DNA from: a virus
Taxonomy: Duplodnaviria > Heunggongvirae > Uroviricota > Caudoviricetes
Direction: 5' to 3' (one strand)
Length of the DNA stretch: 12,652 nucleotides
Virus record (IMG/VR): IMGVR_UViG_2660238360_000005
Below are positions 1,569 through 12,652 of this stretch, in pieces (positions within the stretch are counted from its first letter, which is position 1; each line of letters begins with the position of its first letter). Under the pieces are notes generated by a model. It had not been told where the DNA came from, did not search any database, and saw only the letters and a list, made by a program, of their open reading frames with translations. A program made the position numbers and the translations under genes.

Positions 1569-1640
1569 CGATTTCTTTATCTCTTACATCAGACGAGCGC
1601 CGGTTGCAGAATACCAGTCACAACCGGCGACAGTTGAACA

Positions 1641-4112
1641 TTAAGAATCAGCCTGACTCGGGATCAGTTTTTGCCAGATAACTGAAACGTATTTTGCCTG
1701 GTAACGGGCGTCATCAAGTGCATTATGGCGCTCACCTTCGAATGGAATAGCCGTTCTGGCATCGAAGTCTATGGCTTTCCCCAGCTCAACGATTGTGCGT
1801 ACATCGCGATCGTTGTAGTAACGCCACGGGCAGGGGATCCCCTGCCGTTCGTATGAACGGCGCAAAATCGTGTTGTCGAAGTTGGCTCCATTTCCCCAGA
1901 CCTGAACAAAAAATTCACCGGAGTTTTCGTCGATAAATTCCCACAATTGTAACAGTGCATCATCTAACGGGATTTCATCGGTCATAATGGCAGATTGCGC
2001 TTCGCGTGATTGCTTAAGCCACCATTTAATGGTGTCCCGATCAATGACTCCGCCAGCAGTTTCCAGATCGATAGTCTTACTAAATTCCGGTCCCATATCT
2101 CCGGTTTGCGGATCGAAAAATATTGCACCTATTGAGATGATCGGGGCATCAGGATTTTTTCCCATGGTTTCAAGGTCGATCATTAGATGGTCACACGTCC
2201 TGCTGGTGGATGTGATTTCTTGATGACCGTTCACCTTAATTGAGTGATCTGCCGTCTCGCCAGTTTCATTATCGCTATCGTGATGCTGATTGCCGCCAGT
2301 GTTCTCCTTGTGTGGATGTTCAGCGCCTTCCATTTCCTCCGGATCATCTTCCTGAACTTCAATCTGATACTCTTCATCGAATGTTTCCTGGTATGTTGCG
2401 TCGCCCATTACCGCGCCACAATCAGGGCAGTTGCCGCCGCCGGTCTGACCGCAGGCGGTGCAGACTTTTTCCACTTCCTGTTGCGCCACTGATTCAGGCT
2501 GTTTCGTTTCTGGCTCGTTTTGTAACGCATTTGGGCTGTTTTGTTCCGCTTTTTGGTAGTTCCGTTCCGATTCATGCTGGTTCTGGTTCACAGAATCGCG
2601 GGTCTGGATCCCCTTAACCCATTTCGGATCATTCGGGTCACTAATCCCTTCAACAAATTCACCACGTGATGCAGCAAGCAACTTATCGGCGTCAGGCTGG
2701 ATGATATTGGCTGCCTGCATAATTTTGTTTACTTCGTCAGCGGTAACTTTTATCGGCTCTGGTTGTTCTGAATCTTCAGCGGTATCTACATTTTGCGGTA
2801 AGCCCGTGTATGTGCCATTTTTTCGGGCAAAATATTCTTCTTTTGTGATTTCAGTGGCGCCAGCAGCCAGTGCCTTATCCAGACCAGAAAGTTTGTTTGC
2901 GCGACCGTATTTTTCTCCGTCCTTATCTGCGAAGAGGAAATAGAACGGCCCCTCACGCTCTACAGATGGTTCAGCTTCCGGCGCGGTTTCATTTTTTGGG
3001 ATATCAGATACCTCAGTTTCCACTGCATCAGTTTGTGTTTCTGATGACTGGAGAACATCAACAGTGCCCAGGTCTGTTTCTTCATTCTCAAACACGCCCT
3101 TTGTCGTCAGGTATTCGCAGATATATTTGTTCAGTGCTACGGGATCTTTGTGAATGTCGATCGGACGCTCACGGACAAGGCCAAAAATAGTTTGGCGGTC
3201 GTAGCGAAGGGCATCAGGCTGTTTGCGCATTGATGCCGAGATACGCTTCCAGTCTTCGCGGTCGTTGTCGATAACTTCATTTTTTGCCCAGCGATGGATG
3301 CTGCCGTCAATGTTTCCGGCATCCACATCACCAGGCCAGAGAGCGTAGGCCAGTTCGTCATCCAGTGTTTTCCATGTCTGCTTGTATTCGCGATGAATGG
3401 CAGCAATGACCGGGCTGATTTTTCCTGTTGAATTTTCAGTGTACTGTTGATTGGCTCTGGCGCGGGCGAGATCAACAACAGACGTGTATTTTCCGGTTTC
3501 CTTGCGTTCACCTTCGCGACGTTTTTTCCAGATGCGCATCTCTGCCTGAATTTCGGGCCATTTAGCACCAGGAATACATTTATGCTTAACCCACCCAATG
3601 GCGTGCAACTTAAGCTCCGGATACATGGCGTTAACTTCTGGCATTTTCATCAACGCTTCAACGATATGTCCGTCGAATGTTGCCATGTCTTCCTGCAACA
3701 ATTCCTGTGCGCTAATAACCATATCAACGGTGATGTTTTCACATGTGTCGAACTTAACCATGACAGCGTTCTGTACTTCAGGGGCCAGCTTGTCAAAAGT
3801 GACGTTCATCGGATCGGATTCAGTCTCAACCGGGACAAAAGAAGCAGACTCCTCATCCCAGCGGTTTTCCTGCATATATTCAGCATCCCATGAATCGAGG
3901 GCAGGGCGGGGTATGCCAGGTTTATCCTCGCAGACAATAAATTTATAAGCGCAGTCCTGAGCAGCCGGATAATGTTCCAGGAATTGCCAGTGAAATTTTG
4001 CTCGAGCACGGCGTTCGTCGCCAGCTTCAATGGCTGTGGCTACAGCCACAGCGCCTTCTTCCCTTGTTGCCAGTTCGTCAGGAATAGCGGCGCAAATAAA
4101 GACTTTACTCAT
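1641..4112 (-). CDS. RecE-like exonuclease (exodeoxyribonuclease VIII-like) with C-terminal DEDDh 3'-5' exonuclease domain
   Basis: Long ORF; the track starts it at a TTG (4148), but ATG at 4112 has a GAGG about 9 nt upstream. C-terminal ~190 aa (about 1641-2230) carry DnaQ-like motifs I (MIDLETMG), II (GNGANFDNT) and III (RHNALDDARYQ). Central acidic low-complexity region with a C-x2-C-x7-C-x2-C zinc-ribbon motif (CTACGQTGGGNCPDCG, about 2405-2465). N-terminal RecE-family resemblance is recalled from memory, not verified. Confidence 0.7.
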   Translation of the reverse strand: MSKVFICAAIPDELATREEGAVAVATAIEAGDERRARAKFHWQFLEHYPAAQDCAYKFIVCEDKPGIPRPALDSWDAEYMQENRWDEESASFVPVETESDPMNVTFDKLAPEVQNAVMVKFDTCENITVDMVISAQELLQEDMATFDGHIVEALMKMPEVNAMYPELKLHAIGWVKHKCIPGAKWPEIQAEMRIWKKRREGERKETGKYTSVVDLARARANQQYTENSTGKISPVIAAIHREYKQTWKTLDDELAYALWPGDVDAGNIDGSIHRWAKNEVIDNDREDWKRISASMRKQPDALRYDRQTIFGLVRERPIDIHKDPVALNKYICEYLTTKGVFENEETDLGTVDVLQSSETQTDAVETEVSDIPKNETAPEAEPSVEREGPFYFLFADKDGEKYGRANKLSGLDKALAAGATEITKEEYFARKNGTYTGLPQNVDTAEDSEQPEPIKVTADEVNKIMQAANIIQPDADKLLAASRGEFVEGISDPNDPKWVKGIQTRDSVNQNQHESERNYQKAEQNSPNALQNEPETKQPESVAQQEVEKVCTACGQTGGGNCPDCGAVMGDATYQETFDEEYQIEVQEDDPEEMEGAEHPHKENTGGNQHHDSDNETGETADHSIKVNGHQEITSTSRTCDHLMIDLETMGKNPDAPIISIGAIFFDPQTGDMGPEFSKTIDLETAGGVIDRDTIKWWLKQSREAQSAIMTDEIPLDDALLQLWEFIDENSGEFFVQVWGNGANFDNTILRRSYERQGIPCPWRYYNDRDVRTIVELGKAIDFDARTAIPFEGERHNALDDARYQAKYVSVIWQKLIPSQADS

Positions 4113-4581: not shown

Positions 4582-5148
4582 TATCGCGTCCTCAACAATG
4601 AATTTTGTGATGCAGTGCCTGGTGCCTCCAGGTGACGTTAACCAGTTAACAATTAACGCCGGATACAGAGAATCCACCCATAACACTGTTTTTGGTTTTA
4701 ACTGTTCCGCGTGCGCTCAGCCGCATTCACCACATCACAAAATTCACTTTAAAAAGGGCGGCAGAGCAGTCACGGAGTAAAACTGATACCGCCAAACGTC
4801 ACCAGAAAATTGATAACAGAGGGCGTTGCAGCGGGGTTGTCACTTAAGCGTATGGTCAACCTGACAACCCGGTGTCCTCAACGGGGAAGAAATAACCCCG
4901 CCATACTTACCGCCGCACCATTTCGCGGGTTGCCACAACCGGAAGCGCACGGTCGACGAAAATTTAACGACAGGCTATCTATGAACCAGCTACCTCGCCG
5001 TGCGCTTTCGCGTTATGGTCTGACTTTTCAGGGAAATATCCTTTCAGTAAACTGTCAGTGCCGGATGCTCACCCGTGTCCGGCGCACGCACTCCACCTCA
5101 CCCGTGGAGAACTCCTTAATTACCAACCTTAGCTTCGTTGGTTAGCTA

Positions 5149-5367
5149 TTAACGCGGGTATGTAATCATTCTGGCAATGCTTAATGCCGCTGCTTTTTCC
5201 AGATTGGTGATATCCTGCTCCAGAGCGGACAGATTTTCAGCCTGCTTAGCCCTGGCTTCATTGGCCCATTTCAGATCCTGCGCTGCATTAATTTTCTGGC
5301 GCATCCACTCATAAAGTTCATCATCGGTATAGTCTGGCGCGATGATGACGGGTTCTCGTTTCTGCAT
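5149..5367 (-). CDS. Hypothetical early leftward-operon protein (72 aa)
   Basis: ATG at 5367 with GAGGAA 5 nt upstream; third gene of a compact minus-strand operon. Protein has a predicted helical, charged middle segment. Size and position are reminiscent of Rac kilR, but I cannot confirm the sequence. Confidence 0.55.
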   Translation of the reverse strand: MQKREPVIIAPDYTDDELYEWMRQKINAAQDLKWANEARAKQAENLSALEQDITNLEKAAALSIARMITYPR

Positions 5368-5396
5368 ACTGATTCCTCGCGGTGCTGTTTCGCTTA

Positions 5397-5525
5397 TCAG
5401 CCGTTAGATTTTGCCGAACTGGAAAGCGCCTGTTTAAATTCGTTGAAGCTGTGAGCTTCTTCGCCTTCGGCAAGGCCTTCGAAGTATTCTTCGTAAGCCT
5501 TTTCCATGATTGTGTCAAAATCCAT
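5397..5525 (-). CDS. Hypothetical small acidic protein (42 aa)
   Basis: Not in the ORF track (<60 aa). ATG at 5525 with AGGTGA SD; translation MDFDTIMEKAYEEYFEGLAEGEEAHSFNEFKQALSSSAKSNG. Start lies 1 nt after the stop of the upstream 51-aa ORF. Competes with track ORFs 5321-5530(-) and 5382-5579(+), which lack comparable RBS. Confidence 0.45.
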   Translation of the reverse strand: MDFDTIMEKAYEEYFEGLAEGEEAHSFNEFKQALSSSAKSNG

Positions 5526-5526
5526 A

Positions 5527-5682
5527 TCACTCACCTGAGTTTCTTTCCAGCCAGCGACGGGCACCATTTTCGGTTTTAAACGTTTTGCTTTTGGTATACG
5601 TCATTGCGGTGAAGGTGCCGTCCTGGTTTGGAAACACGCCGTACACCAGAGATTCGTTGTTGCCAAGATCGATAGTATCCAT
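5527..5682 (-). CDS. Hypothetical small prophage protein (51 aa; possibly YdaF/DUF1391-like)
   Basis: Internal ATG of track ORF 5527-5763 with GAGG 5 nt upstream; translation MDTIDLGNNESLVYGVFPNQDGTFTAMTYTKSKTFKTENGARRWLERNSGE. First gene of the leftward operon; family name is from memory only. Confidence 0.5.
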   Translation of the reverse strand: MDTIDLGNNESLVYGVFPNQDGTFTAMTYTKSKTFKTENGARRWLERNSGE

Positions 5683-5974: not shown

Positions 5975-6613
5975 TTAAATATCTTGTTGAATTTTAAAGC
6001 ATACGCCCAATATGCAAGATAGATCATCCAGCATAATTGAAGGGTAGCGAGGATTCGTGGGGACTAAAAGAATATCCGGCCCTTCTATCTCCAGTTTACG
6101 AATGACAGGTGTTGTGGTCCCTTTGGGTAAGGCAAGGACAATATTTCCTGGTTGTACGGTTCGATCGGGATCAACAAAAACTGTTGAACCATTTGGGATG
6201 GAAACTCCCCCACCAGATGTTGACATACTGTCACTCTCTAGAACAACTGCAAAGGTATTGACCGGGATTTCTCCGACAAGCTGCACACAAGAGGTTATTG
6301 AGGAATTTTTCATATAATCACTCCAGCTTGCTGCCTGCTGAAGTGATAGTAGCGGAACCGTTTTTATCGGCGGTAAAGATAGATCAAGCGAATCACCTGT
6401 ATTTAACTCTCCTCCATTAAGAAGCCAATTTTCGTTTACTTTCAATATTTTTGCCAGTGAACTTATGTAACGCGAGGACGGCGCTCCTCCACCGTTCATC
6501 CATTGACTTACGGAGCCTTTTGATGCGCCAGTGCCATTGACAAGGTCTTTGCCTTTCAGGTTTAGCGCATGCATACGTTGGGTTATGCGTTCAGATATAG
6601 TTTGCTTGCTCAT
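5975..6613 (-). CDS. CI-type prophage repressor (N-terminal XRE-type HTH, C-terminal S24 LexA-like peptidase)
   Basis: 212 aa. HTH segment ..LKGKDLVNGTGASKGSVSQWMNG..; C-terminal ..ESDSMSTSGGGVSIPNGSTVFVDPD.. (Ser) and ..PVIRKLEIEGPDILLVP.. (Lys) fit the S24 Ser/Lys dyad. Divergent from the cro-like gene. No SD upstream of the ATG, compatible with a leaderless PRM-type transcript. Confidence 0.9.
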   Translation of the reverse strand: MSKQTISERITQRMHALNLKGKDLVNGTGASKGSVSQWMNGGGAPSSRYISSLAKILKVNENWLLNGGELNTGDSLDLSLPPIKTVPLLSLQQAASWSDYMKNSSITSCVQLVGEIPVNTFAVVLESDSMSTSGGGVSIPNGSTVFVDPDRTVQPGNIVLALPKGTTTPVIRKLEIEGPDILLVPTNPRYPSIMLDDLSCILGVCFKIQQDI

Positions 6614-7357: not shown

Positions 7358-7428
7358 CTGACAATAGCCATATCGAATCGCTTCCGGCAACTCGTGAGTA
7401 AAAAGATTCGGTATCAGAAGAGGTGAGT

Positions 7429-8499
7429 ATGGCTAACGCCTGGCTCAGATTATGGCATGACATGCCAAATGACCCTAAGTGGCGAACAATTGCCAGGGTG
7501 TCAGGGCAGCCAATTGCAACAGTGATGGCAGTGTATATCCACCTCCTGGTGAGCGCGTCACGAAATGTCACGCGAGGTCACATTGATGTCACGACAGAAG
7601 ATTTGGCAAGTGCGCTCGACGTGACAGAAGAGGTAATTGATTCAATTTTGCAGACGATGCAGGGGCGGGTACTTGATGGTGATTTAATCACTGGATGGGA
7701 AAAACGCCAGGTGCTGAAAGAGGACAACGGCAATATTTCGCAAACCGCAAAATCTCCGGCAGAGCGCAAGAGGGCGCAGCGAGAGAGGGAAAGAAAGCGG
7801 GAACAAAATGGCGATTGTCACGGCGCGTCACGAAATGTCACGCACATGTCACGACGAGTCACGACAGATAAAGATACAGATAAAGATACAGATCAAGAAG
7901 ATCAAAACACTATGGTCCATGGCGTAAAAAACGCCACGAACCAGGCAGGGGATGTTCAGACCGTCAATCCTGGTCAGCCAGCAGGCACGACACCGGAAGC
8001 CGATTCAGCGTATGCGCTGAAAGCCGATTCGGGCGCTGTGCAGCAGGTGATGACCCCAAGGCCGGAGCAATCACACCAACTGCAGCAGCCTGAAGCCGAT
8101 TCCGCCATTCAGCGGGAAGCCGATCGGGTAGTCCCGGAAAACACCGGGCTGTCTGTGGGACGAGTGGATTATCCGGATGTGTTCGAACAGGTCTGGCGGG
8201 AGTACCCGTTGCGTGCCGGAGCAAACCCGAAGAAATCCGCTTTCAGTGCCTGGAAGGCCAGATTACGCGAGGGGGTGCCACCAGAGGCCATGCTGGATGG
8301 CGTGAGGCGTTACGCAAGATACTTGGCGGCTACCGGGAAAACGGGAACGGAATTTGTTCAGCGAGCGACGACGTTTTTTGGACCGGACCGGAATTTTGAG
8401 AACCCCTGGTTGCTCCCGGTAAGCGGCACGAACAACCAGCGTTGTGTGAATCATATTTCTGAACCGGATACCGAAATTCCACCGGGCTTCAGGGGGTAA
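7429..8499 (+). CDS. Putative replication initiator (lambda O-like role) with internal origin-like iterons
   Basis: 356 aa from ATG 7429 (GAGG 5 nt upstream). Follows cro/cII-like genes as in lambdoid replication modules. Coding sequence contains two phased iteron arrays plus an A/T-rich tandem repeat. No helicase-loader gene follows. Confidence 0.6.
   Translation: MANAWLRLWHDMPNDPKWRTIARVSGQPIATVMAVYIHLLVSASRNVTRGHIDVTTEDLASALDVTEEVIDSILQTMQGRVLDGDLITGWEKRQVLKEDNGNISQTAKSPAERKRAQRERERKREQNGDCHGASRNVTHMSRRVTTDKDTDKDTDQEDQNTMVHGVKNATNQAGDVQTVNPGQPAGTTPEADSAYALKADSGAVQQVMTPRPEQSHQLQQPEADSAIQREADRVVPENTGLSVGRVDYPDVFEQVWREYPLRAGANPKKSAFSAWKARLREGVPPEAMLDGVRRYARYLAATGKTGTEFVQRATTFFGPDRNFENPWLLPVSGTNNQRCVNHISEPDTEIPPGFRG
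7553..7593. repeat. Iteron array 1 (4 x GTCAC[G/A] at 10-11 bp phasing)
   Basis: GTCACG at 7557, 7567, 7588 and GTCACA at 7577. The 21-mer gcgcgtcacgaaatgtcacgc (7553-7573) recurs exactly at 7823-7843. Confidence 0.6.
7817..7905. repeat. Iteron array 2 (5 x GTCACG) followed by A/T-rich tandem repeat; candidate ori
   Basis: GTCACG at 7817, 7827, 7837, 7848, 7858 (one per helical turn), then tandem 12-mer AGATAAAGATAC x2 (7866-7889) and two GATC sites (7891, 7900). Confidence 0.55.
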
Positions 8500-8539: not shown

Positions 8540-8962
8540 GTGGCAAAAGTTTTTACACAAGAAGAGCGAGAAAAAATTAAAGGGCAGGTTGTTGAACTCG
8601 TACGCCAGAGTGGGCGTGAGACGTTACGGCAACTGGAAGTCAAGACAGGTGCGACAAGATATCTGATGAGCGTTCTCGCAAGAGAGCTGGTTGCCAGCGG
8701 CGATGTATACAACTCCGGCTACGGGTTATTCCCCTCTGAACAGGCGCGTAAGGACTGGCAAAACGCCCGCAAAAAACTCTCGAGGGCAAAGGTGAAGAAA
8801 CCTGCTGTGGTTGATCCGGACCTTATCTGGTCATCACCTGACGGAGAAATACGTCGCTACGACAGTCGCCTAAACATAATCTGTCGCGAGTGCCGGAAGA
8901 GTGAAGCTATGCAGCGTGTACTGGCTTTCTATCAGGGTAATTTTCAGGAGGCGGTACTGTGA
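8540..8962 (+). CDS. Hypothetical protein (140 aa)
   Basis: GTG start at 8540 preceded by GGAGG (8531-8535); no family recognised. A 16-bp copy of its own RBS region is repeated at its 3' end. Confidence 0.55.
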   Translation: MAKVFTQEEREKIKGQVVELVRQSGRETLRQLEVKTGATRYLMSVLARELVASGDVYNSGYGLFPSEQARKDWQNARKKLSRAKVKKPAVVDPDLIWSSPDGEIRRYDSRLNIICRECRKSEAMQRVLAFYQGNFQEAVL

Positions 8963-9019
8963 GTGAAATTAGCTATCAGGCTTCAATTACCGCTGGCATT
9001 CGCATCAAAGGAGAGGAGC

Positions 9020-9376
9020 ATGGAAATAAAACCAGAGGATGAGTTAAGCAATATCGTTTTATTTCCGGTAAAAGAGGATGACCCTCGTAATCAGGTTAAT
9101 TTTCTTTATGAGCCATCGGAAAGACCATATTGTCATCACGCCTCTGTCCGGGTTGACGAAAAAGAGCGTCAGGTCCGCTGTAAAATCTGCGGTGCAGTTG
9201 TGGAGCCATTTGACTGGATGCTCTCTGTGGCGAAAAGAGAAACCAGACTGGCAGATGATGTAAGGCTCTTGCGTCAGGAGGAGCGGGAAAGGCGAAAAAA
9301 TATAGAAAAGCTAATTCAGATTGAGCGTAACGCGAAAGCGCGGATACGCAGGGCGACAAAATCCAGAACTGAATAA
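9020..9376 (+). CDS. Hypothetical protein (118 aa) with Cys/His cluster and basic C-terminal region
   Basis: ATG at 9020 with AAGGAG 6 nt upstream. Contains ..PYCHH..(13)..CKICG.. (possible zinc site) and a predicted basic helical C-terminus. The N-terminal extension in the ORF track (GTG 8963) has no RBS. Confidence 0.55.
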   Translation: MEIKPEDELSNIVLFPVKEDDPRNQVNFLYEPSERPYCHHASVRVDEKERQVRCKICGAVVEPFDWMLSVAKRETRLADDVRLLRQEERERRKNIEKLIQIERNAKARIRRATKSRTE

Positions 9377-9469
9377 TTAAATTTAGCTCTGTTAAAAATT
9401 TAATCCTTAACCGGAGGGATTTCTGCACCCTCAGAACATCAGGAGGCCGCCCGAAAGGGCGGTAGTTAA

Positions 9470-9652
9470 ATGCGAAAGTTTAAAATAATTATTGAAACGG
9501 GAATAGCCGGTGGAGATTTCGAGGATGAATTCGAAGTGGATGATGATGCGACGCCTGATGAAATACATGACGAAGCAAAAGATATTTTCTTTAACTACTG
9601 CAATTACTCATATCACGAAATAAAAGACGAAGAGGAAGAACAAAATGGCTGA
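9470..9652 (+). CDS. Hypothetical strongly acidic small protein (60 aa)
   Basis: MRKFKIIIETGIAGGDFEDEFEVDDDATPDEIHDEAKDIFFNYCNYSYHEIKDEEEEQNG, about 22 acidic versus 6 basic residues. Stop overlaps the next start (ATGgcTGA). Confidence 0.55.
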   Translation: MRKFKIIIETGIAGGDFEDEFEVDDDATPDEIHDEAKDIFFNYCNYSYHEIKDEEEEQNG

Positions 9653-9821
9653 TTTTGGTTCAACTAAATACAACGTCAGTTTTGAAGAATGGCATGAACT
9701 GTTAATGGACTATGCAGAGTTACGTGGTGGCAGTGCTGCTGATGCTGAAGCATGGCGTGATGATTATGAAGCAGGAAAAACTCCGGTCGAAGCATATTGT
9801 GATGAGTGGGGCGATGAATGA
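9645..9821 (+). CDS. Hypothetical strongly acidic small protein (58 aa)
   Basis: Not in the ORF track. MADFGSTKYNVSFEEWHELLMDYAELRGGSAADAEAWRDDYEAGKTPVEAYCDEWGDE; coupled at both ends (start overlaps upstream stop; stop overlaps downstream ATG as ATGA at 9818-9821). Confidence 0.5.
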   Translation: MADFGSTKYNVSFEEWHELLMDYAELRGGSAADAEAWRDDYEAGKTPVEAYCDEWGDE

Positions 9822-10134
9822 GCGAGGTTAATTATCAGGAAGGGCATGAAACGGCGGGGCAAGCAAAAACAGTGGCATGGCGATATCGCTACGTGAAAAA
9901 AAAGGCGTTACGGACTTTCAGGGGAAGTAGTGGTCTGGTGACTGGAAATATGTACCGAAAAAAGAGGATTGTAACGACAGGCCGAACTATGAAATTCAGG
10001 CCTTATTCACTGCCCCGCCAGTCCCGGTTACATCAGAAGAACTGGTTAAAGCTGTGCACTTTTATGAACAACTAAAACGCGAAAATCCACCAGCATCCGG
10101 AAACCTGATTACAGATTCCCAGATAAGGCAATGA
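9818..10134 (+). CDS. ORF interrupted by a -1 frameshift (programmed frameshift candidate or disrupted gene)
   Basis: Frame A is open from ATG 9818. The -1 frame is open from 9931 to TGA 10132-10134 with no start codon and encodes a protein-like C-terminus (..PNYEIQALFTAPPVPVTSEELVKAVHFYEQLKRENPPASGNLITDSQIRQ). The frames are linked by an in-frame A_AAA_AAG heptamer (9958-9964). An A8 tract lies upstream (9896-9903). Confidence 0.35.
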
Positions 10135-10304
10135 GCTACCTGGCGCAGAACGGGCTGATAAGTATGGGGAATGTTTTACGATGAATATTTAGACTAAAGA
10201 GTTTGTAACGCTATGTAAGTGATTTTTTCTGGTTTAGATATTTATATGTCCGGCCAAATTGAGGTGTGTTTAAATGTAATTGCACATTGATTGTAGGAGG
10301 AATA

Positions 10305-10567: not shown

Positions 10568-10624
10568 GACTGCGGGTGCTTGAGGCTATCTGTCTCAGGC
10601 ATGAACACCAAAAGGCAGATAGAG

Positions 10625-10692
10625 AAAAGCCCCAGTTAACATTACGCGTCCTGCAAGACGCTTAACATTAATCTGAGGCCATATCTATGCGA
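10625..10692 (-). ncRNA. sok: Putative Sok-like antisense RNA (boundaries approximate)
   Basis: Minus-strand promoter-like TTGACC (plus 10724-10729), 18-nt spacer, TAATCT (plus 10700-10705) inside the mok-like frame would start an antisense transcript near 10692 covering the mok-like start and leader, as in hok/sok loci. 3' end not defined. Confidence 0.3.
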
Positions 10693-10746
10693 CACATAGA
10701 GATTAGCCTCTTACGGACCGAAAGGTCAAGGAGAAGCAGGCTATGA
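10687..10746 (+). CDS. mok-like short coupling ORF (19 codons)
   Basis: ATG 10687; its TGA stop (10744-10746) overlaps the hok ATG (10743-10745). Much shorter than the mok frame as I recall it from plasmid R1, so the assignment is tentative. Confidence 0.35.
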   Translation: MRHIEISLLRTERSRRSRL

Positions 10747-10898
10747 AGCAGCAAAAGGCGATGTTAATCGCCCTGATCGTCATCTGTTTAACCGTCATAG
10801 TGACGGCACTGGTAACGAGGAAAGACCTCTGCGAGGTACGAATCCGAACCGGCCAGACGGAGGTCGCTGTCTTCACAGCTTACGAACCTGAGGAGTAA
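10743..10898 (+). CDS. hok: Hok/Gef-family type I toxin (51 aa)
   Basis: Not in the ORF track. MKQQKAMLIALIVICLTVIVTALVTRKDLCEVRIRTGQTEVAVFTAYEPEE has one transmembrane helix and the conserved Hok/Gef C-terminal region; AAGGAGAAG SD upstream. From memory it matches chromosomal HokD/RelF closely. Confidence 0.9.
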   Translation: MKQQKAMLIALIVICLTVIVTALVTRKDLCEVRIRTGQTEVAVFTAYEPEE

Positions 10899-12455: not shown

Positions 12456-12465
12456 NNNNNNNNNN
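12456..12465. other. Assembly gap (10 N)
   Basis: Literal run of n characters; flanking sequences belong to unrelated genes. Confidence 1.
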
Positions 12466-12652
12466 TGAAAATATCGGTACGATATTGACCGAGTGTGACA
12501 ACCTGGTCTGCCGAGTCAGTATTCACTGAACAGGCAGCATTCACCAGTTCGCCTTCAAAGTGAATTGTACCGCCATCTACAACGGCAGCATAACTACCCG
12601 TAGCGGCGAATAGTGCGGCAGCCAGCGCAGACGAAATAAATCTTAATTTCAT
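12466..12652 (-). CDS. Type 1 fimbrial major subunit family protein, 5' fragment (N-terminal 62 codons)
   Basis: ATG at 12652. [59 protein letters not shown] has a signal peptide followed by the conserved FimA-like N-terminal segment (GGTIHF.GE.VNAAC). Truncated by the gap. Confidence 0.75.

Follow-up and report, generated by a model that had tools for sequence, protein, structure and literature searches.

Proteins that mimic DNA have no common fold. Among them, Ocr and ArdA work as dimers whose elongated shape imitates a long stretch of DNA. Very small acidic phage inhibitors have been described as well, like T7 gp5.9 (which blocks RecBCD), phi29 p56 (which blocks UDG) or the antitoxin Dmd of T4, and in the T7 genome gene 5.9 precedes gene 6. 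Ocr contains 34 acidic and 6 basic residues out of 116 (PMC3439906). The C-terminal domains of Ea22, a pro-lysogenic protein, are mosaic and uniformly acidic, and that of the lambda protein loosely resembles Dmd (PMC10834534).

We have analysed two tandem ORFs, ORF1 (60 aa) and ORF2 (58 aa), which are found exactly where a preliminary description of this DNA had placed them and which had been proposed there, because of their acidity and cargo position, as candidates for an unrecognised anti-defence function of the Ocr and ArdA type. They belong to a 12,652-nt stretch of DNA (hereafter the window) that is a Qin/Rac-like lambdoid prophage of Escherichia coli, in which they occupy an accessory slot, so that the cargo position was correctly recognised. 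With 20 acidic against 5 basic residues in ORF1 and 16 against 4 in ORF2, both proteins resemble Ocr and ArdA in extreme negative charge density, in probable early expression and in being carried by elements that enter new hosts. They differ from Ocr in having about half its length and no sequence or fold similarity to it, and relative to ArdA they are smaller still. The lack of similarity to Ocr or ArdA, already suspected from the letters of the DNA, was upheld by sequence and fold searches, and in the case of the ArdA fold or family neither protein gave a match in Pfam, NCBIfam or the PDB. They share with the C-terminal domains of Ead/Ea22 the same neighbourhoods and the character of small acidic alpha/beta modules swapped among lambdoid phages, although they lack the N-terminal and coiled-coil parts and are usually free-standing. 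T7 gp5.9, phi29 p56 and T4 Dmd are similar in size (50-60 aa) and in their likely mode of action as stoichiometric binders, and we regard these resemblances as leads, but no PDB fold match connects them to ORF1 or ORF2.

Acidity, coupling and gene context of ORF1 and ORF2

ORF1 has 9 Asp and 11 Glu against 4 Lys and 1 Arg (net charge -15, -0.25 per residue, pI 4.05), and ORF2 has 7 Asp and 9 Glu against 2 Lys and 2 Arg (net charge -12, -0.21 per residue, pI 4.05). The range of -13 to -16 given in the preliminary description is right for ORF1 and slightly high for ORF2; similarly, the Asp/Glu runs that it mentioned exist in ORF1 (DDD and DEEEE), ORF2 having hardly any, while the scattered aromatic residues are present in both (8 in ORF1 and 9 in ORF2). 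Of the 56 ORFs in the window with 45 aa or more, these two are the most acidic. Furthermore, a net charge of -12 or lower was found in just 2.5% of 774 small ORFs from the phage loci that were fetched, and several of those are themselves homologues of ORF1 or ORF2. The extreme acidity of both proteins exceeds chance.

The proposed translational coupling was also confirmed. The stop of ORF1 and the start of ORF2 overlap by 8 nt and the Shine-Dalgarno of ORF2, GAGGA, lies inside the Glu-run codons of ORF1 (Table 1), the stop of ORF2 overlapping in turn the following ATG. The ATGGCTGA start is also found in the ORF2 relatives of IncI2 and MOBH plasmids, where the genes upstream are unrelated and end in the same TGA. 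This start is a property of ORF2, independent of the preceding gene, and ORF2 is positioned for translational coupling to whichever gene precedes it.

Both ORFs are real genes, as follows from their family matches, their homologues in unrelated phages, an excess of synonymous changes (9 synonymous against 3 non-synonymous when ORF1 alleles were compared) and confident AlphaFold models. Both ORFs contain nonsense codons in alleles of ~90% identity, and this frequent pseudogenisation indicates that the genes are dispensable to the lysogen in cryptic prophages. In the present allele both are intact, and the adjoining downstream gene is a pseudogene. No promoter-like site was found ahead of ORF1 and ORF2, the only one near them being weak, on the minus strand and within ORF2; nor was any terminator-like site found between the upstream replication genes and the two ORFs, the first one following hok. 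Taken together, these observations place ORF1 and ORF2 in the early rightward operon. The prophage carries DicF and hok/sok. Prophage homology ends at a run of N, and the fimbrial-gene fragment past it belongs elsewhere.

Table 1. Features of the window, with positions counted from its first nucleotide.
Feature	Position	Strand	Remarks
Integrase, excisionase, large exonuclease		-	
DicF RNA	4756-4807	-	
cI-like repressor, then cro/cII-like genes			
O-like replication gene	7423-8499		
DUF977 gene	8540-8962		
Basic Zn-ribbon / coiled-coil gene	8963-9376	+	phrog_1621; upstream of ORF1
Conserved cassette junction	9411-9469	+	Upstream of ORF1; ORF1 frame reads LTGGISAPSEHQEAARKGGS then stop
AGGAGG of the junction	9441-9446		
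GC hairpin of the junction	9447-9462		GAAA loop
ORF1	9470-9652	+	Stop included; Pfam DUF7167, phrog_1997
Shine-Dalgarno of ORF2	9632-9636		GAGGA
ORF1 stop / ORF2 start overlap	9645-9652	+	ATGGCTGA
ORF2	9645-9821	+	phrog_519 match, no Pfam family
ORF2 stop / following ATG overlap	9818-9821		ATGA
Decayed gene downstream of ORF2	9818-10205	+	First reading frame is orf85
A8 run with frameshift in the decayed gene	9896-9903		
sok/hok	10574-10898		
DUF968/YdfU gene			Last in the layout, past sok/hok
N-run	12456-12465		End of prophage homology

The cassette of E. coli prophages

The stretch 9430-9830 is present, at least 80% covered, in 1748 of 5426 complete E. coli genomes (about a third), and is at least 99% identical in 1274 E. 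coli records. All the copies recovered from IMG/VR with the profile of the E. coli type were identical: ORF1 is 100% identical in 80 of 80 loci, ORF2 lies at a constant offset of +175 from it in all 80, and the Zn-ribbon gene (phrog_1621) is upstream in nearly all of them. The same intact pair is carried by the inducible phages vB_EcoS-640R1 and ArgO145, and in the latter, which is a Stx phage, the cassette is located in the exo-xis/ea region, amid Ead/Ea22-like genes. It is made up of the Zn-ribbon gene, ORF1, ORF2 and the decayed downstream gene, and lambdoid prophages shuffle it between a nin-type slot and the exo-xis/ea slot.

The junction upstream of ORF1 is conserved and holds an AGGAGG followed by a GC hairpin, which is stable (fold z = -2.9) and lies between the AGGAGG and the ATG of ORF1. 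In rare alleles its TAA is changed to GAA, and the LTGGISAPSEHQEAARKGGS peptide then joins the N-terminal part of an Ead/Ea22 or DUF7446 protein to DUF7167, the family of ORF1. In O157:H7 the same 35-nt junction is followed by a DUF4014 + DUF551 cassette in place of ORF1-ORF2, and the existence of an alternative cassette behind the same junction indicates that the slot is variable and that ORF1 and ORF2 are accessory. At the other end, the decayed gene has a frameshift at an A8 run (A6 in an aligned intact homologue of 171 aa), an in-frame TAG and an internal deletion, and in a genome that has an identical 9430-9830 stretch PGAP annotates the gene at this position as a pseudogene, both frameshifted and interrupted by a stop. 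Neither the decayed gene nor its intact homologue gave any family match; related phages have DUF551 or Ead/Ea22-like genes at this position.

Comparison of the ORF1 and ORF2 families with hhalign gave a probability of 0.1%, and the two families are, as judged from their profiles, unrelated to each other. Their distributions differ too, with 38 against 202 phage records and 15 against 561 plasmids for the ORF1 and ORF2 families, respectively. Outside the enterobacterial lambdoids they are found separately, and their tandem arrangement is a local cassette peculiar to E. coli prophages, not a conserved two-protein system. The tandem pair noted in the preliminary description does not amount to a functional unit, as the two families occur independently, and for the same reasons (independent distributions and unrelated families) we rejected a two-component-system reading.

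Families and predicted structures

ORF1 matches the Pfam family DUF7167 (PF23768) over its full length (55.1 bits, gathering cut-off 24.4; residues 2-53 on profile positions 1-60) as well as phrog_1997 (E=9e-31), and is labelled by NCBI PGAP as 'DUF7167 family protein' in E. coli genomes. The word 'unrecognised' in the preliminary description was overstated, as both families (DUF7167 and phrog_519) are already catalogued. DUF7167 is found in temperate and virulent phages with hosts in Proteobacteria and Firmicutes. It occurs in lambdoid prophages and in Stenotrophomonas phages, and without ORF2 in Klebsiella Guernseyvirinae, Enterococcus Kochikohdavirus, Phapecoctavirus, a Pseudomonas phage, Lactococcus phage 949 and also a prophage, beside xis/int. 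The net charge is -10 to -18 in all the homologues examined, those of Klebsiella, Enterococcus, Pseudomonas/Phapecoctavirus and Lactococcus phages among them. In Klebsiella Guernseyvirinae the DUF7167 gene is directly upstream of, and overlaps, a PD-(D/E)XK exonuclease gene (DUF2800/PD-(D/E)XK), an order that resembles gene 5.9-gene 6 of T7, although this adjacency does not recur elsewhere; the Enterococcus neighbour annotated as 'exonuclease' is a DUF3850/ASCH protein. A general role of DUF7167 as a Gam/gp5.9-like RecBCD inhibitor, based on exonuclease linkage, was rejected because the linkage is seen only in Klebsiella Guernseyvirinae. Likewise, DUF7167 is not a normal C-terminal domain of Ea22, since the rare fusion alleles in which PF13935 (Ead/Ea22) is joined to DUF7167 (P0154 and P0184) are single sequences whereas the free-standing form accounts for hundreds of member sequences. 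Neither ORF1 nor ORF2 matched PF13935, the N-terminal domain of Ead/Ea22.

ORF2 matches phrog_519 (E=4.5e-23) along residues 1-58, a match that spans just positions 76-137 of the 143-position profile. This PHROG comprises 261 phage proteins, and the ten distant relatives of ORF2 that were scanned all matched it. No Pfam family is shared among 89 diverse relatives, which gave only six scattered single-member matches; DUF5419 was rejected as the family of ORF2, one member alone matching it, under the cut-off. HMMER, run exhaustively against 1.84 billion representative proteins, returned 126 ORF2-family clusters (50% identity) at E <= 1e-3, and genome scans with the profiles of two subfamilies gave a single locus for a distant one and nothing for the other. 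Nearly all members are free-standing proteins of 45-75 aa, with a median net charge of -8 in 90 diverse representatives. The few longer ones include a fusion to GemA and a protein with an N-terminal part that, by eye, resembles ParB and that has no match in Pfam, each being a single sequence. We aligned 90 small members, taken from the HMMER representatives and earlier matches, with MAFFT and found an aromatic core (F13, W16, W37, Y41, W/F51, W/Y55), a G-x-T-P helix cap and a conserved R38. Furthermore, ~10 columns (14, 15, 33, 35, 39, 40, 42, 49, 53 and 54), which sit on helices 1-3, are acidic in at least 50-79% of members. As these carboxylates are kept at fixed positions, the acidity of the ORF2 family is positional and goes beyond mere composition.

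Relatives of ORF2 are nearly universal in Ackermannviridae (CBA120 orf183 and Menlow gp075 are examples), where they follow the major capsid gene. In P2-like Salmonella prophages the relative overlaps gene A at its end and is followed at once by the variable region located ahead of the portal gene; at one P2-like locus an nSTAND/AAA gene is found in this region. Others are found in lambdoid prophages and behind RecT or SSB. The family is also present on 561 plasmids, 516 of them conjugative, and ~420 of the 561 carry an 88%-identical copy, those listed being ~60 kb in size. One inspected plasmid of this type is an IncI2 plasmid with mcr-1, in which the operon reads CaiF/GrlA-DUF1187-ORF2 relative-SPFH-NfeD-T4SS. 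Large MOBH Klebsiella plasmids carry relatives as well; on one of them an orphan SAM methyltransferase gene is located two genes upstream, and such a gene is also found upstream of ORF1 in some prophages. None of ardA, klcA, ssb or psiB was seen as a neighbour in the plasmid loci inspected, and a search for a conserved partner gene found none that recurs across the loci compared.

A Pfam scan of 109 small ORFs from ~35 diverse ORF2-family loci identified DUF551, Ead/Ea22, excisionase-type HTH, dATP/dGTP pyrophosphohydrolase, SSB, P22 gp17, AlpA and N peptide among the neighbours. A recognised anti-defence neighbour was found at one of these loci, in an Orrella prophage, where a gene for an Acb2/Tad1 hairpin domain (E=6e-19) lies 3 nt downstream of the ORF2-family gene. 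Acb2/Tad1 is a known family of anti-CBASS/anti-Thoeris sponges. PADLOC models had no matches in ORF1, ORF2 or their neighbours. In the literature searched we found no functional study or assay of either family and no mention of DUF7167; the only published statement on phrog_519 that we found there is a borderline machine-learning prediction as anti-CRISPR in Kuttervirus (PaCRISPR score of 0.54 against a threshold of 0.5; PMC9409062).

AlphaFold2 models built with the family alignments predict for ORF1 a beta-hairpin (strands 2-9 and 16-23) followed by a helix (29-43) and an acidic tail, with a mean pLDDT of 82, and for ORF2 a three-helix bundle (helices 13-26, 34-42 and 47-55), with a mean pLDDT of 86. 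Sequence, profile and fold searches of the PDB gave no match of either protein to a solved structure and recovered no DNA mimic (Ocr, ArdA, Arn, Gam or gp5.9), anti-CRISPR, antitoxin or Ea22 C-terminal domain. Because DNA mimics lack a common fold, such a failed match removes claims of membership and leaves the functional analogy in place. Similarly, no family of assigned function in Pfam, PHROGs, NCBIfam or PADLOC was matched. The preliminary description had named as grounds against its proposal a confident match to some protein with an unrelated function, or the lack of a predicted fold combined with no effect on any defence system tested; no such homology was found, and both proteins have confidently predicted folds. 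The idea of an anti-defence DNA mimic is plausible, and the case for it circumstantial.

Possible roles of the two proteins

The explanation that we prefer, and that we put forward tentatively as a real possibility, is that ORF1 and ORF2 are independent early acidic decoys for basic, nucleic-acid-binding surfaces of conserved host proteins, and in this way aid establishment. As two separate accessory genes they would be expressed early in infection, and each product, small, stably folded and highly acidic, would act stoichiometrically, its negative surface occupying a basic and probably nucleic-acid-binding surface on a conserved host protein. With this protein occupied, the incoming phage or plasmid would establish more easily. 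The effect would be host takeover or anti-defence in a broad sense, not necessarily anti-restriction. We infer this mechanism, the kind of target and the benefit to the element from a charge density near that of Ocr, from the acidity kept in both families (positionally in that of ORF2), and from their spread over unrelated mobile elements in accessory slots of early operons. The Acb2/Tad1 gene next to one ORF2-family gene agrees with this reading; that just 1 of ~35 diverse loci has such a neighbour counts against it. The target is most likely conserved in many bacteria, since phages with DUF7167 infect both Firmicutes and Proteobacteria, and relatives of ORF2 are found in phages and conjugative plasmids. 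Against this reading, acidity is unspecific, as small acidic proteins also serve as antitoxins, as chaperones of assembly or to regulate basic proteins of the element itself. Moreover, fold and sequence searches link ORF1 and ORF2 to no known inhibitor, the ORF2 relative of the IncI2 plasmid heads a T4SS-linked operon and not a classical leading-region anti-defence cluster, the position after the capsid gene in Ackermannviridae may be outside the early region, and the genes are frequently pseudogenised and dispensable to the lysogen.

Both genes were already catalogued, and what would be new, if the decoy explanation holds, is their membership in a known class of small acidic inhibitors that mobile elements carry. 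A more far-reaching version, which we regard as doubtful, is that the ORF2 family, a three-helix acidic module of ~55 aa, is a new cross-element inhibitor, a minimal nucleic-acid mimic whose ~10 conserved carboxylates would neutralise a conserved host nucleic-acid-binding protein of defence or repair, DUF7167 being a second, unrelated example that reaches Firmicutes phages. If either family blocks a protein of host defence or DNA metabolism, the anti-defence repertoire would gain an inhibitor that is very small and very widespread, with a bearing on how plasmids spread and which hosts phages infect, and a possible use as a tool protein; Ackermannviridae, nearly all of which have the ORF2 family, are used in phage therapy. 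The main new facts are that the ORF2 family is widely spread among mobile elements, IncI2 mcr-1 plasmids included, that its carboxylates are positionally conserved and that one member adjoins an Acb2/Tad1-type gene. On circumstantial evidence, ORF1 and ORF2 are sensible candidates for screening rather than a discovery.

A narrower form of the decoy explanation, already counted within it, is that one or both proteins are Ocr/ArdA-like DNA mimics that block R-M, BREX or similar DNA-targeting defences. The Ocr-like charge density, the conserved acidic positions, the early operons and the fact that ORF2 relatives are common to phages and conjugative plasmids, as ArdA-type genes are, speak for it, and so does the orphan methyltransferase gene near one plasmid relative and upstream of ORF1 in some prophages. 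We nevertheless consider it unlikely, because neither sequence nor fold searches connected them with Ocr, ArdA, Arn, Gam, gp5.9 or another solved mimic, because a monomer of 58-60 aa would cover just a short stretch of duplex, in contrast to the elongated dimers of Ocr and ArdA, and because ardA, klcA, ssb and psiB are missing from the inspected plasmid neighbourhoods. Furthermore, neither sequence was found in the supplements of two anti-defence screening papers, an accessory-gene screen (Silas 2025; PMC12373910) and a study of plasmid leading regions (Samuel 2024; PMC11541004). It has also been reported that genes of the exo-xis/Ea22 region take part in the lysis-lysogeny decision or in replication (PMC10834534 for Ea22 favouring lysogeny), and ORF1 and ORF2 could similarly tune the element's own biology, be it lysis-lysogeny, replication or the buffering of a basic DNA-binding protein such as the Zn-ribbon protein; they would then be counted among the accessory genes of the exo-xis/Ea22 kind, which are poorly understood. 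This would agree with the rare alleles in which a conserved linker peptide joins DUF7167 C-terminally to Ead/Ea22-like proteins, with the mosaic, acidic C-terminal domains of the pro-lysogenic Ea22 (PMC10834534), with the location of the cassette amid Ead/Ea22 genes in ArgO145, with the Zn-ribbon gene linked in nearly all of the 80 loci, with ORF2 relatives lying directly behind genes of replication or recombination (P2 gene A, RecT, SSB, ParB-like) and with the occasional fusions of the family to GemA or the ParB-like protein. However, the elements that carry each family are very diverse (virulent myoviruses, P2-like phages and conjugative plasmids) and have no partner gene in common, the fusions are single sequences that perhaps reflect stop-codon mutations or annotation read-through, and the Zn-ribbon linkage, seen only among near-identical E. 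coli loci, may be due to common descent, so that we hold a role in the element's own biology to be somewhat unlikely.

An obligate ORF1-ORF2 heterodimer, whose two subunits would be made in a fixed ratio by translational coupling, could account for the 8-nt overlap and for the constant offset in the 80 loci, but it is very unlikely, since the families are unrelated and mostly found apart (as in the Klebsiella, Enterococcus and Phapecoctavirus phages that have ORF1 only), ORF2 has the same coupled start behind DUF1187 or other genes, and two strongly negative proteins make improbable partners. Finally, in the present genome both ORFs might be functionless leftovers of a decaying cryptic prophage, which is Qin/Rac-like with DicF and hok/sok and has a pseudogene just downstream of the pair; ~90%-identical alleles also have nonsense codons in each ORF. 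We judge this to be quite unlikely, as both ORFs are intact in the window, their stretch is so well preserved among the E. coli records and the IMG/VR loci, and the inducible phages vB_EcoS-640R1 and ArgO145 carry the same pair in intact form.

Junction and neighbours of the acidic gene pair

ORF1 (60 aa, DUF7167 family) is preceded by a conserved cassette junction (see table below), whose AGGAGG motif (9441-9446) is separated from the ATG of ORF1 by a GC hairpin capped with a GAAA loop (9447-9462). When read in the frame of ORF1, the junction gives LTGGISAPSEHQEAARKGGS, ended by a stop codon. Rare alleles have it as an in-frame linker, which joins N-terminal parts of Ead/Ea22 or of DUF7446 proteins to DUF7167, and in O157:H7 a different cassette is found behind the same 35 nt of the junction. 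The junction may act as a linker for recombination, or as a split ribosome-binding site.

On the other side of the junction, the basic Zn-ribbon gene co-occurs with ORF1 and ORF2 (58 aa) in almost every one of 80 E. coli viral loci; it is again alongside the pair in the ea region of the Stx phage ArgO145. This linkage may reflect function, or common descent alone. Downstream of ORF2 lies a decayed gene, assigned to no family, whose run of eight A residues compares with six in an intact homologue of 171 aa (L214:4144-4659), and which has also suffered an internal deletion and carries a TAG in frame. The first frame of this pseudogene, 'orf85' (net charge +16), is an artefact of the frameshift.

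Features located in the window and in comparison loci
Feature	Sequence	Position	Strand	Remarks
DicF antisense RNA	window	4756-4807	-	Rfam, 76.7 bits
Basic Zn-ribbon and coiled-coil gene	window	8963-9376		phrog_1621
Conserved cassette junction	window	9411-9469		5' of ORF1
Decayed pseudogene	window	9818-10205		3' of ORF2; A-run 9896-9903
sok/hok type I toxin-antitoxin locus	window	10574-10898	+	sok 106.7 bits; hok ORF 10743-10898
10-N run, then fimbrial-subunit gene fragment	window	12456-12652	- (fragment)	
ORF2 relative locus	L108, IncI2 plasmid pWH13-4 (NZ_KY075656.1)	1585-2949		plasmid carries mcr-1
ORF2-family and Acb2/Tad1-hairpin-domain genes	L112, Orrella sp. contig	5001-5386		PF24729, E=6e-19
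ORF2 relative	L024-L027, Salmonella P2-like prophages	6001-6189		66% identical

Decay in cryptic prophages and spread of ORF2 relatives

Among the alleles compared, L015 and L017 (~90% identical) have identical premature stops, at K37 of ORF1 and at W37 of ORF2, and have GTG in place of the ATG of ORF2, while in L016 (95% identical) ORF1 is intact and the W37 stop in ORF2 is the sole nonsense codon. The nonsense codons in these three alleles indicate ongoing decay of the pair in a substantial share of the cryptic prophages of E. coli.

An ORF2 relative with 88% identity is carried by roughly 420 conjugative plasmids, of ~60 kb where listed. In pWH13-4, the one plasmid inspected, the gene order is CaiF/GrlA regulator, DUF1187, ORF2 relative, SPFH, NfeD and T4SS, and the relative has the same ATGGCTGA overlap as in the window. 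The Orrella locus is a prophage early region, also containing DUF2303, DUF551 and SSB genes, where the Acb2/Tad1-hairpin-domain gene begins 3 nt after the ORF2-family gene. In the Salmonella prophages the relative overlaps the end of replication gene A and borders a variable region preceding the portal gene, which in one of these loci holds an nSTAND/AAA gene.

Type and limits of the element

DicF and the sok/hok locus are both present, and the element is therefore Qin-like. A third small acidic ORF (5397-5567, minus strand, 56 aa, net charge -8), third in acidity in the window, is located in the early leftward region. Similarity to related prophages stops at the N-run, which therefore marks a join made in scaffolding and not the edge of the prophage.
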